Of a stretch of DNA of 64,000 nt, positions 47,129-53,436 are shown piece by piece (position 1 is the first letter of the stretch; every line of letters starts with the position of its first letter). This DNA comes from Escherichia phage S127 BCL3. Below the pieces are notes generated by a model that worked only from the letters and a program-made list of their open reading frames with translations, did no database searches and was not told the origin of the DNA. A program made the translations under genes and the position numbers. The DNA is taken from sequence record OQ626344. One strand, given 5' to 3'.

Positions 47129-48313
47129 TCAAGCTTTAGCTAAAATGGCGCTAAACTCTTCACCAAACTCTTTTACAATCTTCATCAGGTTTGGGTATGC
47201 TTTGATCAGCTGAGCAACGATCTTGTCCCTGCCTTTACCAATAAGTAAGGCATTTCCTAAGGCGTTAGGTTTCATCATCGCCATAAAGACTGAGAATACA
47301 AAGTCTCGGTTCTCATCCTTGAAATTTTCCCAAAGGAAATCAAGGAAGTTTGCCACACAGCTGACAAGATCTTCGTCGGAGATACTTGCATTTTCCATCA
47401 TATTACGAATAGCGATACAACCTTCTGACCCCAGAATCCACAAGATGTCTGGCTGCTTAGGACCTACATATTCTTTGCAGCCTCCTGCCATAATCCGACC
47501 GATTTCTGGCAAGTTTCGTTTCTTGGTGTGGTAGGTCCAAATTTCTACCGCTGCAGTGTGACCAATTGCACCTTGTAGAAGGACACGGGCCATAGCGTCA
47601 GAAATAATACCGCTGTCAAAATCGTGCAGGATGTCAGATGCAGCAACCCAAGATCGCGGTGTAGCAAAAGATGGACAATTAATCTCAGCCATGGCCTCAT
47701 AATTATCGATGGCTGATGGGACTCTTTTCAGATATCCAATTACCGAGGAGTGCACCCCATTAAGGAATGCATAGTCCTCAATAAACACCTCTGCACTGCT
47801 TGTAACTTCTACAATGATAAAGCGGTTAGCTAGAGGAGCTTCGAGTGCCGAAAGAACAGCACCGTCTGTAGCACGGTTACCTGCAGCTACAAAAACAGAG
47901 CCTTTAGGAAATGCATAGGTGCCGCACTTGTGGTCGAGCATAATTTGCATTGCAACCTTCTGCAGGTAGTTATCTGCATGAGTAAGCTCGTCTAGAAAGA
48001 TAATTCCGCTCCAGTCCGGATCTGCAGGCCAAAATTCTGGAATTGCAAACACTGTACGTGTAGTTCCATCTGCCTCCACAGGGATAGGCAGTCCAGATAA
48101 GTCAGCAGGATCTTTATCTGACAACCGCACGTCAACCAGGTTGTCATCTCGCTCACCGAACATATTATCAGCAATCTGCTTCATCACCTGGCTCTTCCCC
48201 ACGCCCATCGGTCCTAAAATCAGGACAGATCGGTTATGACGCTGGGCAAATTGAATAATAGCTGGCAACTCGCGGACAGTGATTTGACCACTTTCGAATA
48301 CGTTTCTCGACAT
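47129..48313 (-). CDS. MoxR/CobS-like AAA+ ATPase, 394 aa
   Basis: Walker A GPMGVGKS; Walker B IIFLDELTH; sensor AAGNRATDG. Confidence 0.9.
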   Translation of the reverse strand: MSRNVFESGQITVRELPAIIQFAQRHNRSVLILGPMGVGKSQVMKQIADNMFGERDDNLVDVRLSDKDPADLSGLPIPVEADGTTRTVFAIPEFWPADPDWSGIIFLDELTHADNYLQKVAMQIMLDHKCGTYAFPKGSVFVAAGNRATDGAVLSALEAPLANRFIIVEVTSSAEVFIEDYAFLNGVHSSVIGYLKRVPSAIDNYEAMAEINCPSFATPRSWVAASDILHDFDSGIISDAMARVLLQGAIGHTAAVEIWTYHTKKRNLPEIGRIMAGGCKEYVGPKQPDILWILGSEGCIAIRNMMENASISDEDLVSCVANFLDFLWENFKDENRDFVFSVFMAMMKPNALGNALLIGKGRDKIVAQLIKAYPNLMKIVKEFGEEFSAILAKA

Positions 48314-48582
48314 TAGTAAAAGTCCTCTACTTGTGTGTAAGTGTTTTCAAAGTTTTCCAAAACAGACATCACATCGGATCTGTCAATATCATACGCAACT
48401 CTCCAGCCATATGCAACCCTTTCTGCTGTTGCCTCTTCTGGCGCTAGTCGTCTGCTGGCATAAAAGAGTGTTGGAGTACACTTTCTTGCTTGCCCTCTAA
48501 CTTTCCCATAATAATATCTGTGAATATCTTTGTCAAAATTTAATTCTTTTTCTGCACGAAGTTCGTACTGCTGGTATAACAT
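48313..48582 (-). CDS. hypothetical protein, 89 aa
   Basis: TAATG junction with the ATPase gene. Confidence 0.7.
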   Translation of the reverse strand: MLYQQYELRAEKELNFDKDIHRYYYGKVRGQARKCTPTLFYASRRLAPEEATAERVAYGWRVAYDIDRSDVMSVLENFENTYTQVEDFY

Positions 48583-48626
48583 CTCTACTGCTCCTTAAGC
48601 AGCATCCTTGCCGCCATCCCTACCCA

Positions 48627-49007
48627 CTAAAATGCAGTCCGAATCCAGACAAGGTTCTTATCTGCCCAATCATAGAGGCAAGTCATTGCACTATTGAATT
48701 GCTCACACGGAGGATAATCTTCTTCCATCTTGCGCATAGCAGAGCCTTGTGGGTAAAGCTCCCGTGCTGCAAACCACGCGTCGTAGTCATCAACGGTATC
48801 GAAGTAGTATACAACATCCTCCAACTCAGGATCGAACTTTGAACTATCAGGATCCAGCTGTTCAGGGAACTTGGAGCGTAACTTGCCAGCCACAATACTT
48901 GCCAACTCGCTAACATGTTTGTTGTCCCACTCTACCAGTTTCCCGTCTTCAGTTATGCGTCCTAACCACTGATCATGAAGGTCAACTGTTGTCTTCCACT
49001 GGGCCAT
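48627..49007 (-). CDS. hypothetical protein, 126 aa
   Basis: Track ORF in an operon context. Confidence 0.7.
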   Translation of the reverse strand: MAQWKTTVDLHDQWLGRITEDGKLVEWDNKHVSELASIVAGKLRSKFPEQLDPDSSKFDPELEDVVYYFDTVDDYDAWFAARELYPQGSAMRKMEEDYPPCEQFNSAMTCLYDWADKNLVWIRTAF

Positions 49008-50952: not shown

Positions 50953-51942
50953 ATGAATCTTGAAAAATATTATACACCAGAAGAGTTAGAGCGCTTGCTC
51001 AAAAAATACAGACGCAAACAGAATAACGCACGGAAACGGGATATAGAGTTCAACCTGTCATGGGAAGAATATCTCCTATTTGGTAAAAAACTTTTAGGAG
51101 AGGGAGTATGCGACTATACCCTTATACCTTTCGACATGCACACAGATGAAAACGGACTGGGAAATCCTTTCTACCCATCTTTGGAGCGGATAGATGATGA
51201 AGGTCCTTATGCGGTTGATAATTGTTGTGTGGTGGGATTGAGATGCAACTCCCTAAAGGACTGCCTGGTAGATAAAAAGACCGCAGTCTTGATTAAAGAC
51301 AAAACTGATCGAAAAATTGTCCAGCAGATGATGCTCCACCTGAGCGAAGAGCGTATGGAGAAATTGAAAGGTGATTACACTTTTGAAGATTTCATCTTGC
51401 AATATGGAACGGAAGAAGATAAACTAGCACTCTTTGACGAAGAATGGGAGGAAGATATGTCACCAATGCAGGATTTTAAAAACTTCATGGCTAATCGTGG
51501 AGCCAACAAGCACATTTCTGACATTATAAACGAGCCTGTAGTAGAGGAGATTGAAGAGATGACGCAAAAGGCTTACGAAGAGGAAAAAGAGCCTCAAGGG
51601 GTCGAAGAAGAGCTTACAGAAGAGGTTCCTGCACTGCCTGACGATGTTGAGATTGCCAAAGCTTACACTTTCTATTGCCAGACGTTCTACGATGCAGGTA
51701 TGAAAGTTGATCTGTCATTCAGCCAGTTTAAGAGCACATACATCCGAAAATGTTGTGCTTTAACTGGTGAACGTCTCGGTGCCGGACTTAAACCCCTATT
51801 AGTTACCGACTGGAACAAAGGTTTCACCAAAGGTAACTTCATGGTAGTATCTCCAATCATGGAGAAGGCTATGACAGACCTTATGAAGACCACTCGCATG
51901 ACAATGACCGAGTTGGCTGGTATTTTCAAGCACGTTAAATAA
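50953..51942 (+). CDS. hypothetical protein, 329 aa; two degenerate His-Me-finger (HNH/EndoVII-like) repeats possible
   Basis: The ATG at 50953 lies downstream of the promoter. N-terminal RKRDIEFNLSWEEY...C-x-YT...SLERID...N-x6-N-x2-K, and a weaker C-terminal repeat. The function is a guess. Confidence 0.65.
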   Translation: MNLEKYYTPEELERLLKKYRRKQNNARKRDIEFNLSWEEYLLFGKKLLGEGVCDYTLIPFDMHTDENGLGNPFYPSLERIDDEGPYAVDNCCVVGLRCNSLKDCLVDKKTAVLIKDKTDRKIVQQMMLHLSEERMEKLKGDYTFEDFILQYGTEEDKLALFDEEWEEDMSPMQDFKNFMANRGANKHISDIINEPVVEEIEEMTQKAYEEEKEPQGVEEELTEEVPALPDDVEIAKAYTFYCQTFYDAGMKVDLSFSQFKSTYIRKCCALTGERLGAGLKPLLVTDWNKGFTKGNFMVVSPIMEKAMTDLMKTTRMTMTELAGIFKHVK

Positions 51943-51975
51943 TGACAGGGGCCAATGGCCCCTTCTGGAGTTTTA

Positions 51976-53436
51976 ATGGATAGCAGAAGTTCAGAAATCA
52001 TTACCGCACAAAAAGATGATGCCTTGCGAATGCTGCAGGCCGCTCGCATGTACCTTCTTGAAAAGCTGCCGTTTTATGGCACACTGTTGTCAGGGTTGCA
52101 GTTCGTAGAAAACCACACATGGTGCTCCACTATGGCAACAGACCATAAACGCATCTACTACAGTCCTGAGTTCATTATGGGGTTGGCAGATGAGCGTAAA
52201 ACCATTCTTAAAGCATCTCTGACTGACAAGCAGTTTGAGATGGCTGAAGTTTTCTATTCCCCAAAATCTGTGAAAGAGGTGGCCTTTCTTCTGTCACATG
52301 AGGTGGGGCATATTATCTGTGATCATCTGGTCCGTGGTAAAAGCTTTGAGCCGGAACTGTTCAATATTGCTTGTGATCACGTTATCAACACAGGTCTTGT
52401 GGTTGACTTTAGCAAGCCTCCTTGTGTTTTCTTCCCGAAGGGGAAAAGCACTGAGTTCGTAAAAGGTAAGCCTTTTGGCTTCTTAGCCAGTTGCTACTGC
52501 GACATGAAGTTTCATGGATGGATTGCTGAGAACGTCTATGCAGTTCTTGATAAACAAAGAGATCAGAATAGCGGTAAAAGTAAGAACGGTAAAGGTGAGA
52601 ACTCCCAAGGAGATAAACGACAAACCGATGATCACATGAGTGGGAACGGTGGCACCAGTGATGATCTTGGAAAGGCTATGGGGTATGATCAGCCGCAACC
52701 AGTAATCAGTCAATCTGATAAAGATCAGGCCATGCAGGACTCTGGTGACATGTTGGAAGCAGCAATGCAAGCTTCAGGAGGTCGTTGCCCCGAGGCGGTG
52801 CGCGAGTTTGTCAAAAACAGAGGCAAGCCTGTAATCAATTATATAGATATTATTAAGCAACGTATGTTATCTAAAAGAAAGGCTGAGTTAACCTACAGAA
52901 AACCTGGTCGCCGATCTGGGTCTTTGACCACCACAATGCGAAAAGTTGGAGCTATAAACAAGAATCAACACGTTATTGTTCCTGGTCGTAATCCGGAAAA
53001 CACTATAGATATTGTAGTGGCTTTAGACGTTTCTGGATCGATCTCACAAAGAACTTTAAAGAAAATGTTCAATGAGATCACCGGGTTGTGCAATTTGTAT
53101 AAAGAGTTTAAGGTTACGATGTTCTGTTGGTCAACCGAGGTTGGAGAGGTTAAAGTATACACTCGCGGTAACATCGATGAGATGATCAACTATGAGGTCC
53201 ACTCAACATGGGGCACAACAGCCGCCTGCGTGTTCGAGTATCTGGATGCTAACATACCGAATGCAAAAGATGTCATCGTCCTTACCGACCTCTACTTTGA
53301 GCATAACTTTGAACAAAAGGCTGTTGACAACAAGTGGAAAAAGTACGATACTTTATGGGTTCTCACCGAAGGGTATAATAAAAATTATATCCCGAGCTTT
53401 GGGAAAACTGTGGAATTAATCGAGTACGCTAAGTAA
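51976..53436 (+). CDS. metallopeptidase-like (HExxH) plus VWA-domain protein, 486 aa
   Basis: ATG at 51976 with SD GGAG; SHEVGHIICDH zinc motif; MIDAS ALDVSGSIS; architecture of DUF2201-type partners of MoxR ATPases. Confidence 0.85.
   Translation: MDSRSSEIITAQKDDALRMLQAARMYLLEKLPFYGTLLSGLQFVENHTWCSTMATDHKRIYYSPEFIMGLADERKTILKASLTDKQFEMAEVFYSPKSVKEVAFLLSHEVGHIICDHLVRGKSFEPELFNIACDHVINTGLVVDFSKPPCVFFPKGKSTEFVKGKPFGFLASCYCDMKFHGWIAENVYAVLDKQRDQNSGKSKNGKGENSQGDKRQTDDHMSGNGGTSDDLGKAMGYDQPQPVISQSDKDQAMQDSGDMLEAAMQASGGRCPEAVREFVKNRGKPVINYIDIIKQRMLSKRKAELTYRKPGRRSGSLTTTMRKVGAINKNQHVIVPGRNPENTIDIVVALDVSGSISQRTLKKMFNEITGLCNLYKEFKVTMFCWSTEVGEVKVYTRGNIDEMINYEVHSTWGTTAACVFEYLDANIPNAKDVIVLTDLYFEHNFEQKAVDNKWKKYDTLWVLTEGYNKNYIPSFGKTVELIEYAK

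Follow-up and report, generated by a model that had tools for sequence, protein, structure and literature searches.

A MoxR-class ATPase and a zincin-like peptidase/VWA partner encoded on either side of a putative bidirectional promoter in an rV5-type phage

A MoxR-class AAA+ ATPase paired with a protein joining a zinc-peptidase domain to a VWA domain is a widespread and already annotated phage gene pair. In phage rV5, gene 4 was named MoxR ATPase and gene 12 DUF2201_N in 2013, and a bidirectional promoter between genes 10 and 11 has been reported (PMC3606486). Iyer et al. (2021, Viruses 13:63, PMC7824862) described a MoxR and peptidase-vWA pair in jumbo phages. In N4, gp24 and gp25 are middle transcripts and belong, as two of 14, to the core genes of N4-like phages (PMC4193335). 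For another viral MoxR-VWA pair, p618/p892 of the Acidianus two-tailed virus (ATV), interaction and ATPase stimulation have experimental support (PMC4124505). In NorQD, the VWA domain inserts a finger into the pore of the ATPase ring (PMC13036017). The genes, the promoter and the phage pairing had thus all been published or annotated before, and the novelty implied by an initial annotation of the present locus does not hold. No experiments on any member of the family were found in the searched literature.

The locus considered here lies in a 64,000-nucleotide stretch of Escherichia phage S127 BCL3 (OQ626344; the window), which is Vequintavirus DNA with 99.4% identity to phage ECP26; the phage is a 137-kb E. 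coli Vequintavirus of the rV5 type. All ORFs were found as initially described, with the ATPase and HExxH/VWA genes about 3.7 kb apart on opposite strands. The two start codons are separated by 3,662 bp, and a back-to-back pair of sigma-70-like promoters is placed between the genes (Table 1).

Table 1. Features of the split pair and the DNA between its genes (window coordinates).
Feature	Position	Strand	Remarks
MoxR-class AAA+ ATPase, 394 aa	47129..48313	minus	rV5 gp4 ortholog; N4 gp24 family
Walker B of ATPase, IIFLDE	47987-48004	minus
Walker A of ATPase, GPMGVGKS	48191-48214	minus
Five small ORFs (89, 126, 85, 118, 92 aa)	48313..49914	minus	PHROG families of unknown function
Sigma-70-like promoter, TTGACA-17-TATTAT	48508..48536	minus	11/12, consensus match only; inside 89-aa ORF
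299-aa ORF, first gene of leftward unit	49911..50810	minus	PHROG 12338, unknown function
Promoter, TTGACT-17-TATAGT	50879..50851	minus	10/12 consensus positions
Promoter, TTGACA-17-TAAGAT with extended TG	50893..50921	plus	10/12 consensus positions
329-aa Srd-like protein	50953..51942	plus	rV5 gp11 ortholog; PHROG 3118, E = 2.8e-111
GC-rich hairpin, AGGGGCC-AAT-GGCCCCT	51947..51963		between 329-aa ORF stop and DUF2201 start codon
Zincin-like peptidase + VWA/MIDAS, 486 aa	51976..53436	plus	rV5 gp12 ortholog; N4 gp25 family; DUF2201_N about aa 1-320, DUF2201 (VWA/MIDAS) about aa 340-486
HEVGH of 486-aa protein (residues 108-112)	52297-52311	plus
MIDAS DVSGS of 486-aa protein	53026-53040	plus

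The label MoxR-like needed additional support, because the ATPase lies below every Pfam AAA threshold (16.9 against a cutoff of 22 for AAA_5, 15.5 against 27 for bpMoxR). Such support was obtained. The protein matches PHROG 1297 ('ATPase', E = 2.3e-110), PF07726, PF07728 and PF20030 are found in homologs at 31-35% identity, the family profile matches the AAA domains of Midasin, and alignment to N4 gp24 gives E = 6e-35 (hhalign). The AF2 model (pLDDT 85.9) displays predicted beta-hairpins at residues 75-90 and about 129-135, corresponding to the helix-2-insert and pre-sensor-1 hairpins, and an additional helical region at the C-terminus (about residues 288-393). The top 16 PDB matches to this model are all NorQ or CbbQ, at an identity of only 16-21%. 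The Walker A and B motifs, both sensors (1 and 2) and the arginine finger are all invariant, the invariant residues being G37, G39, K40, S41, D108, E109, N146, R164 and R220. Judged from sequence and predicted structure, gp4 is a MoxR-class AAA+ ATPase with intact predicted catalytic motifs, as first proposed.

The partner, in contrast to the ATPase, is above the Pfam cutoffs, both for DUF2201_N (100.4 bits, cutoff 23.2) and for DUF2201 (43.7, cutoff 26.4). The family alignment shows no variation at H108, H112, D351, S353, S355, T414 and D438, the catalytic Glu of the HExxH motif is kept in at least 90% of the sequences, and the MIDAS motif is complete. The proposed union of an HExxH peptidase-like N-terminus and a MIDAS VWA domain in one protein is borne out by these matches and residues, and gp12 is, by its predicted domains, a zincin-type HExxH domain followed by a VWA domain whose MIDAS site is complete. 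A conserved basic linker joins the two. Alignment to N4 gp25 gives E = 8e-41 (hhalign). An in-frame ATG at 51955 falls inside the hairpin; the annotated start is at 51976 instead.

The HExxH motif appears to sit in a peptidase-type region, since the profile of the N-domain matches 11 PDB sequences, all of them gluzincins, with selecase MJ1213 as the best match (E = 9e-4) and weaker M48 proteins after it. Downstream of the motif, the family also conserves H117 and N130-x-A132-x-D134-x3-N138; the third zinc ligand of gluzincins is a Glu. The peptidase fold is predicted from this one profile match and the weaker M48 matches, both fold searches with the partner having been swamped by VWA matches.

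Among those VWA matches are NorD and BchD, which, together with NorQ and CbbQ as the solved structures closest to the ATPase, would fit a metal-insertion or cofactor-maturation chaperone of the NorQ/NorD, CbbQ/CbbO, CobS/CobT or BchI/BchD type. In that case the HExxH domain would handle metal instead of acting as a peptidase, and the pair would activate a metalloenzyme of the phage or the host, such as one of the radical-SAM type or of nucleotide metabolism; radical-SAM genes, along with ThyA and ThyX, do recur beside the pair. We consider such a role quite improbable. All matches of the N-domain profile are to genuine peptidases, with the HExxH in register, and metal delivery alone would not need the conserved Glu. 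In addition, no single metalloenzyme is constant as a neighbour, and we know of no zincin domain in the VWA partners of known metal-insertion systems.

The view that the two genes are partners despite their split is strongly supported by comparative sequence analysis. The ATPase is found within 10 kb of a DUF2201 relative in 76 of 80 viral loci, and no ATPase occurs within that distance in 3 of 79 untruncated ones. In 66 of the 80, the ATPase gene precedes that of the DUF2201 relative in the same orientation (with a gap of at most 150 bp in 28 of these), and further examples with the ATPase directly upstream on the same strand are L003-L007, L090, L092, N4, Certrevirus CR8 and phage LTH01. Counts of the two proteins by host genus are closely alike among isolated phages, and the proteins diverge in parallel across the rV5 clade. 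The jumbo coliphages PBECO4, GAP32 and fEgEco12 are among those with homologs of the protein from the window. Hundreds of phages have inherited the two genes as a pair, and the near-universal co-occurrence upholds the pairing assumed initially.

The opposite-strand layout occurs in 10 viral loci, all in the rV5 clade. Since the genes are still neighbours in CR8, LTH01 and N4, the split layout has probably arisen secondarily, by an inversion around the bidirectional promoter. A divergent switch is present a few genes upstream of the adjacent pair in CR8 and LTH01, and a SleB-like hydrolase is found on the opposite arm in both L019 and OQ626344. An inversion is only the most parsimonious reading, since the small genes flanking it have no detectable homology between the two layouts. 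In either case, the split is a clade-specific change of gene order and not a new architecture.

It is conceivable that the split uncoupled the genes, leaving them in rV5-like phages as remnants that act alone or with other partners, as the 3.66 kb and opposite strands between them, the candidate private promoter of the ATPase and the hairpin before the partner gene might suggest. This is very hard to reconcile, however, with the retention of both genes in 10 of 10 split loci while ATPase identity to the protein of OQ626344 falls from about 100% to 43%, with the fully intact catalytic and MIDAS residues and with the parallel divergence of the proteins; nor was a further VWA or MoxR gene noticed in the region by ORF list and Pfam profiles. 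We therefore give it very little credence.

The only divergent intergenic gap, of 142 bp (50811..50952), contains both back-to-back sites, which the promoter scan located precisely at the proposed 50851-50921, and the GC skew switches sign at this gap. Taken as a whole, the scan shows no more than mild enrichment, with 24 sites where shuffled sequences give 15.9 +/- 3.7, so that any single site is weak evidence. The top-scoring site of the region is the one inside the 89-aa ORF, whose -35 box begins 223 nt upstream of the ATPase ATG. The same element stands at -223 in a relative (L009, 72% identical) in which the spacer has diverged, and it may be the ATPase's own promoter. Hairpins equivalent to that before the partner gene precede the DUF2201 start by 15-35 nt in L009, L012, L015 and L016, followed by plus-strand T-runs in the last three; the hairpin may be a terminator or an attenuator.

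Between the ATPase and the promoter region there are six minus-strand ORFs, as initially listed. The 126-aa ORF (48627-49007) is kept beside the ATPase in L009, L012, L013 and L015, while the other small ORFs recur only in L009 among the relatives. The 299-aa protein, for which Pfam, NCBIfam and PADLOC searches gave no match, is named 'putative alpha 1-3 fucosyltransferase' in GenBank relatives. It is absent from more distant clade members and, being confined to close relatives, is not part of the ATPase/partner system. On the other arm, the gene of the 329-aa protein (mechanical ORF from a TTG at 50893) precedes the DUF2201 gene, in the same orientation, in all members of the split clade. Its product has weaker PHROG matches to Srd, sigma-70-decoy and endonuclease VII families, in line with the Srd homology proposed for rV5 gp11 (PMC3606486). 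In the family alignment it consists of two degenerate endonuclease-VII/HNH-like halves with an acidic linker between them. The claim that these are repeats is weakly supported: hhalign of the two halves gives P = 9.7e-5 and a probability of 58%, and a BLAST comparison of the N-terminal with the C-terminal half was not significant.

The timing of the system is suggested by its neighbours, surveyed as 141 large genes in 19 dereplicated loci. The commonest of the 25 Pfam families listed are 5'-3' exonuclease (11), radical SAM (9), ThyA (4) and ThyX (4), and DNA ligase (2) also occurs. Capsid, portal and terminase are not among the 25, and a tail-fibre chaperone domain (2 loci) is the sole structural-type entry. 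In the present phage, the leftward unit continues into rIIA/rIIB, helicases, Dam methylase and primase-helicase, and the promoters match the host sigma-70 type. This gene context, which is circumstantial, points to action early in infection or during replication and away from virion assembly, although in one megaphage the pair lies amid ClpX, ClpS, ClpP and HSP20 genes, a setting more suggestive of general proteostasis than of replication.

The alternative that the pair is a virion-assembly chaperone for head or tail proteins, with the HExxH domain as a maturation peptidase for structural proteins, was proposed for the identical architecture in jumbo phages (PMC7824862). In ATV, p618 interacts strongly with p892, is part of the virion and has been given a role in tail development (PMC4124505), and the N4-like pair consists of core genes, as assembly factors often are. 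We nevertheless regard this alternative as unlikely. The N4 genes are middle rather than late transcripts, the neighbours in the 19 diverse loci are replication and nucleotide-metabolism genes, and the genes here lie in sigma-70-driven units with rII, helicase and primase genes. Moreover, neither protein is named among the rV5 virion proteins identified by mass spectrometry in the main text of the rV5 paper, and rV5 has a separate ClpP-family protease, gp122. The initial mention of a virion or replication complex goes beyond what the sequence can decide; the gene neighbourhood favours the early or replication-phase side.

We consider it probable that the products of the two genes form a single two-component machine, the counterpart in the rV5 clade of N4 gp24/gp25. 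By analogy with NorQ-NorD, CbbQ-CbbO, RavA-ViaA and Midasin, the ATPase would form a hexameric ring gripping the VWA domain or the linker, the MIDAS metal would bind an acidic residue of the client protein, and ATP hydrolysis would pull or twist the client. The fused peptidase could then cleave the client, or itself, so that the pair would function as an ATP-dependent protease whose target is found through the MIDAS site. Given the gene context, this machine would act ahead of late gene expression, and its substrate would be a protein of the phage or the host from the phase of replication or host takeover, not a virion protein. Comparative gene order points to an ancestral layout, retained in CR8, LTH01, N4 and most uncultured phages, with the ATPase and then the partner adjacent downstream of a divergent promoter. 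Inversion of the promoter-to-ATPase block, in the line of descent that gave rise to the Vequintavirus-, Seunavirus- and Klebsiella/Raoultella-phage-like members, would have put the ATPase on the leftward arm. Both genes would still be read outward from one bidirectional promoter region, and the candidate private promoter and the hairpin may set different expression levels.

Compared with known systems, the only solved proteins that the N-domain profile detects are the minigluzincins and M48 proteins (selecase MJ1213, HtpX, BepA, Ste24), in an alignment that spans the strand, the linker and the HExxH helix and is marginal (E = 9e-4 to about 1). In NorQ-NorD and CbbQ-CbbO a hexameric ATPase ring works with a MIDAS VWA partner, as would the phage pair, but the matched NorQ/CbbQ chains have 241-267 aa against 394 aa in the phage ATPase, and the clients of the bacterial systems are defined metalloenzymes. 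To our knowledge, VWA partners of the NorD/CbbO type carry no HExxH peptidase domain.

ATV, likened here by description, is an archaeal virus whose MoxR-vWA system lacks a peptidase domain (Iyer et al., PMC7824862). The group 2.2 jumbo phages of Iyer et al. (2021) have the same pair, in which the vWA co-chaperone carries a metallopeptidase at its N-terminus; a virion-assembly role was proposed there, whereas in the 137-kb Vequintavirus the genes are unlinked and their context suggests an early or replication-phase role. A close counterpart is the N4 pair of the Schitoviridae (gp24, AAA ATPase; gp25, vWFA/DUF2201), both members of which are homologous to the rV5-type proteins, with the same domain architecture and a similar neighbourhood of rII and DNA-metabolism genes. 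Insertions in the peptidase domain make the partner in the rV5 clade about 100 aa longer than gp25. The middle genes of N4 are transcribed by the phage RNAP II. The N4 genes are adjacent and co-directional, whereas those of the rV5 type are split across a host-type bidirectional promoter.

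In the window, the ATPase (the ortholog of rV5 gp4) and its partner (a DUF2201_N/DUF2201 protein, the ortholog of rV5 gp12) are encoded on opposite strands, with 3,662 bp between their start codons. The initial annotation had placed a MoxR-like ATPase and a VWA/metallopeptidase protein on either side of a divergent promoter, and ORF and promoter scans recover all the elements that it named at their coordinates. As far as genomics tells, it is well supported that the two proteins are partners. The pair belongs to a phage gene-pair family that is already described, and it is itself already annotated; the pairing has been reported for N4-like and jumbo phages.

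Features of the ATPase/partner region and of the related loci discussed in the text (positions refer to the window unless another locus is named)
Feature	Position	Strand	Remarks
rIIB, rIIA	42994-46192		0.9 kb downstream of the ATPase gene
126-aa ORF	46739-47119	-	just downstream of the ATPase gene; conserved in L009
ATPase	47129-48313	-	394 aa
Six ORFs, from ATPase to promoter		-	89, 126, 85, 118, 92 and 299 aa
Sigma-70-like site	48508-48536	-	TTGACA-17-TATTAT; 11/12; inside the 89-aa ORF; best match in the region
299-aa ORF	49911-50810	-	last of the six ORFs
Divergent gap			142 bp; contains two promoter-like sites
Promoter-like site	50879-50851	-	TTGACT-17-TATAGT
Promoter-like site	50893-50921	+	TTGACA-17-TAAGAT, extended TG
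329-aa ORF	50953-51942	+
GC-rich hairpin	51947-51963; L009 9969-9988		just upstream of position 10001 in L012, L015 and L016
486-aa ORF (partner)	51976-53436	+
N4 gp33, gp34 (rII genes)	L088 8461-13076		~3 kb downstream of gp24/gp25
Pair in 578-kb contig	L090 1-12200

The class of the ATPase is not evident from Pfam, as the protein does not reach the gathering thresholds for AAA_3, AAA_5 or bpMoxR (AAA_5, 16.9 bits vs 22; bpMoxR, 15.5 vs 27; AAA_3 unlisted). With sub-threshold AAA matches only, the MoxR-like assignment required independent support. Relatives at 31-35% identity (E ~1e-44) do bear AAA_3, AAA_5 and bpMoxR (PF07726, PF07728 and PF20030), which makes the window ATPase a divergent member of their group, and a profile of the 52-member ATPase family matches the Midasin AAA modules in the PDB with E = 3e-10. 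A single-sequence search of the PDB yields generic Clp and AAA P-loop matches only, and the NCBIfam and PADLOC searches are uninformative. Walker A (GPMGVGKS, residues 34-41) and Walker B (IIFLDE, residues 104-109) are present, and G37, G39, K40, S41, D108, E109, N146, R164 and R220 are invariant across the 52 sequences; by position, N146 is assigned as sensor 1, R164 as the arginine finger and R220 as sensor 2.

The clade-defining feature of the helix-2-insert AAA+ proteins is the helix-2 insert (PMC7159879). The AF2 model of the ATPase (pLDDT 85.9) has a predicted beta-hairpin (75-81/84-90) that falls between strands 2 and 3, and a pair of short strands at ~129-135 ahead of strand 4, corresponding to the pre-sensor-1 hairpin; the model thus shows, as a prediction, both beta-hairpin inserts typical of this clade, together with an extra helical C-terminal region. 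In a Foldseek search of the PDB, ranks 1-16 are all NorQ or CbbQ (E = 3e-8 to 6e-7, target TM-score 0.61-0.68), MoxR-class ATPases that work with VWA partners. On the strength of the relatives' domains, the Midasin match, the predicted fold and the invariant motifs, the ATPase is assigned to the MoxR class as a divergent member that, judging by its motifs, is probably catalytically intact.

For the partner, annotated initially as an HExxH peptidase-like N-terminus combined with a MIDAS VWA domain, both Pfam domains score above threshold, PF13203 (DUF2201_N) being N-terminal (100.4 bits vs a cutoff of 23.2, E = 1.7e-28, residues 95-321) and PF09967 (DUF2201) C-terminal (43.7 bits vs 26.4, E = 3.6e-11, residues 353-488 of a 493-aa ORF). 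Across family alignments spanning 24-82% identity, the MIDAS set D351, S353, S355, T414 and D438 is invariant, giving a complete DxSxS...T...D motif on a VWA fold. In the N-domain, H108 and H112 of HEVGH are invariant, E109 is kept in at least 90% of the sequences, and the N130/A132/D134/N138 motif is likewise invariant. An N-domain-only profile matches 11 PDB sequences, all of them gluzincin peptidases, with selecase MJ1213 the best (E = 9e-4), followed by M48 proteins including BepA, HtpX and Ste24; the alignment covers the strand, the linker and the HExxH helix. As VWA matches fill both fold-search result lists for the partner, the N-domain fold rests on the sequence profile. These matches give no sign of an HExxH lying outside a peptidase fold. 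The MoxR and VWA/peptidase assignments hold, with the peptidase fold confirmed only in part. A single-sequence search of the PDB with the partner gives no match, a protein search with N4 gp25 for named cellular relatives returns N4-like phage proteins only, and a single-protein scan of genome contigs for a cellular context (query P0145) finds no match.

The partnership itself is carried by co-occurrence. HMM scans for both families over 80 viral contigs, chosen because they encode a relative of the partner, place an ATPase within 10 kb of the partner gene in 76. In 66 of the 80 the ATPase precedes the partner gene on the same strand, with a gap of at most 150 bp in 28 of these 66; this arrangement, with the ATPase directly upstream, extends to an aquatic phage (L003-L006), a further locus (L007), an N4-like contig and the 578-kb megaphage contig. 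Opposite strands are seen in ten loci, all from the rV5 clade and all more closely related to the window than the rest (39-100% identity). Among the four loci lacking an ATPase, one is ended by the contig end, and the other three have no ORF with a Walker A GxxGxGK[ST] at all. A tblastn search of 50,697 phage records locates the partner in 673 and the ATPase in 812, and the counts by host genus agree closely (partner/ATPase: Escherichia, 213/213; Pectobacterium, 26/26; Cronobacter, 17/17; Pseudomonas, 104/108). Identities of the two proteins drop in parallel across the clade. Co-inherited and intact after their separation, the two genes provide natural evidence that operon linkage is not needed for the partnership.

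Only one branch of the Vequintavirinae shows the split layout. In Certrevirus CR8, of the same subfamily, and in phage LTH01, the ATPase is immediately upstream of the partner, and a divergent strand switch precedes the pair by a few genes. In the window, the ATPase comes seventh among the genes of the leftward arm, and the partner second on the rightward arm. Because all outgroups have the adjacent layout, the split is derived. The adjacent layout would become the split one if the segment reaching from the promoter through the ATPase were inverted, and a SleB-like hydrolase is found on the opposite arm in both layouts. The split is best explained by such an inversion around the bidirectional promoter; homology between the small flanking genes of the two layouts was not detected, so we infer the event rather than demonstrate it. 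The split is an ordinary lineage-specific rearrangement. Three loci considered as phi92-like (L018-L020) were dropped from that category, as they match Certrevirus CR8.

The region holds 24 promoter-like sites, compared with 15.9 +/- 3.7 in shuffled sequences. Given this mild enrichment, the assignment of back-to-back promoters, which are of the host sigma-70 type, rests on their position, on the change of sign of the GC skew and on the published rV5 analysis, where a bidirectional promoter has been on record since 2013 (PMC3606486). The best-matching site of the region stands 223 nt ahead of the ATPase ATG, and the same hexamers recur at the same distance in the 72%-identical relative L009, where the spacer has diverged; the site may be a candidate private promoter of the ATPase. 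On the other arm, several genera have a GC-rich hairpin ahead of the DUF2201 start codon, at a distance of 15-35 nt and with differing stem sequences. A plus-strand T-run comes after it in L012, L015 and L016, and a TATAAT box before it in L012 and L015. The hairpin could be a terminator or attenuator, or part of a promoter-plus-stem-loop cassette controlling the partner gene.

Little in this region is new as annotation. The stretch 47000-53500 has 99.4% identity to Escherichia phage vB_EcoM-ECP26, and more than 100 further rV5/FV3-type phages (Vequintavirus) match at 93-99%. GenBank relatives carry the labels 'MoxR ATPase', 'putative metallopeptidase' or 'VWA-like domain-containing protein', 'anti-sigma factor' and 'putative alpha 1-3 fucosyltransferase'. 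The 2013 rV5 paper entered gene 4 as 'MoxR - ATPase' of 394 aa, gene 12 as a conserved hypothetical protein with PF13203 DUF2201_N, and gp11 as a probable Srd homolog (PMC3606486). The window itself thus matters very little, its genes, annotations and bidirectional promoter having been known since that paper. In Table S3 of the same paper, gene 12 has 441 aa and overlaps gene 13; set against the 486 aa of the window ortholog, this hints at a frameshift, or a mistake in sequencing, close to the 3' end of the rV5 record (PMC3606486). In addition, 16 records titled 'Campylobacter phage' (A142, A141, A13b, C9 and others) match 47000-53500 in the phage database; those among the matches listed have ~93% DNA identity and ~98% identity in the partner protein, and the host label of these 16 records looks doubtful.

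The 329-aa Srd-like gene (rV5 gp11, the 'anti-sigma factor') is upstream of the partner on the same strand at every split-clade locus examined; a distant copy of this type is found 7 kb downstream of the pair in the viral locus L071. The 329-aa protein has two degenerate endonuclease-VII/HNH-like halves flanking an acidic linker. The HNH-like repeats initially proposed for this protein gain weak support from hhalign and none from BLAST. The fucosyltransferase label of the 299-aa protein is unsupported by Pfam, NCBIfam and PADLOC, and its gene is present in close rV5 relatives only. For the 126-aa ORF just downstream of the ATPase, the rV5 table notes a resemblance to the phage T5 hypothetical protein T5.083 (PMC3606486).

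The sole published functional proposal for the MoxR plus peptidase-vWA pair is a role in virion assembly (PMC7824862), and the neighbourhoods across diverse phages run against it, favouring replication or the early phase. In the window, the leftward unit runs on into rIIA/rIIB, two helicases, a Dam methylase and a primase-helicase. In a scan of 19 dereplicated non-rV5 loci, covering 141 large neighbouring genes, the commonest Pfam families are 5'-3' exonuclease (11), radical SAM (9), ThyA (4) and ThyX (4); DNA ligase (2) is present too, and the 25 families listed include no capsid, portal or terminase. In N4, gp24 (the ATPase) adjoins gp25, followed by a dCTP deaminase, gp30, rIIA and rIIB, gp30 being a putative thymidylate synthase (PMC2784036). 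Both gp24 and gp25 are middle transcripts in N4 and belong to the 14 core genes of N4-like phages (PMC4193335; PMC2784036). The virion proteins named in the main text of the rV5 paper do not include gp4 or gp12 (PMC3606486); rV5 also has a separate ClpP-family protease. Taken together, the middle-phase transcription in N4, the sigma-70-type promoters, the replication neighbours and the virion list argue for a pair acting before late gene expression. Besides the published assembly proposal, one neighbourhood weighs against a replication-phase role: in the 578-kb metagenomic, megaphage-sized contig, the pair is found amid ClpX, ClpS, a ClpP-like protease, HSP20 and ribosomal protein S21, a proteostasis context unlike the replication context elsewhere. 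The proximity of rII genes to the pair recurs in two unrelated phage families, which may or may not be meaningful.

A defence or anti-defence system was also considered and set aside, PADLOC having no significant match (marginal P-loop matches for the ATPase, E >= 5.6e-4; none for the partner). A MIDAS metal generally coordinates an acidic residue on the client protein. In solved MoxR-VWA systems such as NorQD, the ATPase forms a hexameric ring that contacts the VWA protein through one of its loops or linkers (PMC13036017). By analogy, the addition of a conserved zincin domain to a MoxR-VWA system suggests an ATP-driven remodeller that would be coupled to proteolysis. It is conceivable, if on balance unlikely, that the N4 gp24/gp25-type pair represents a previously uncharacterised class of phage ATP-dependent protease, in which the zincin peptidase would be driven by a MoxR ring and would choose its clients via the MIDAS; made before the late genes, the pair would cut a specific host or phage protein needed for replication, takeover or counter-defence. 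If true, its conservation in Schitoviridae, Vequintavirinae, jumbo phages and thousands of uncultured phages would place it among the most widespread unexplained phage functions. In the literature searched, including CRISPRi-ART and phage transposon mutagenesis, experimental work on members of the N4 gp24/gp25 family was not found; phage SUSP1, with 138 coding sequences, is among those screened by CRISPRi-ART.

The question raised by these genes is therefore the function of the whole N4 gp24/gp25 family, with nothing peculiar to the window. At E <= 1e-3 the family counts 26,907 cluster representatives, and the stricter E <= 1e-10 leaves 19,199, which marks it as a large, conserved phage function. 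By hhalign, the window families match gp24 with E = 6e-35 and gp25 with E = 8e-41. The N4-type operon, where the ATPase is immediately upstream on the same strand, is not kept in the window; this is a difference of gene order only, and the homology is not in doubt.
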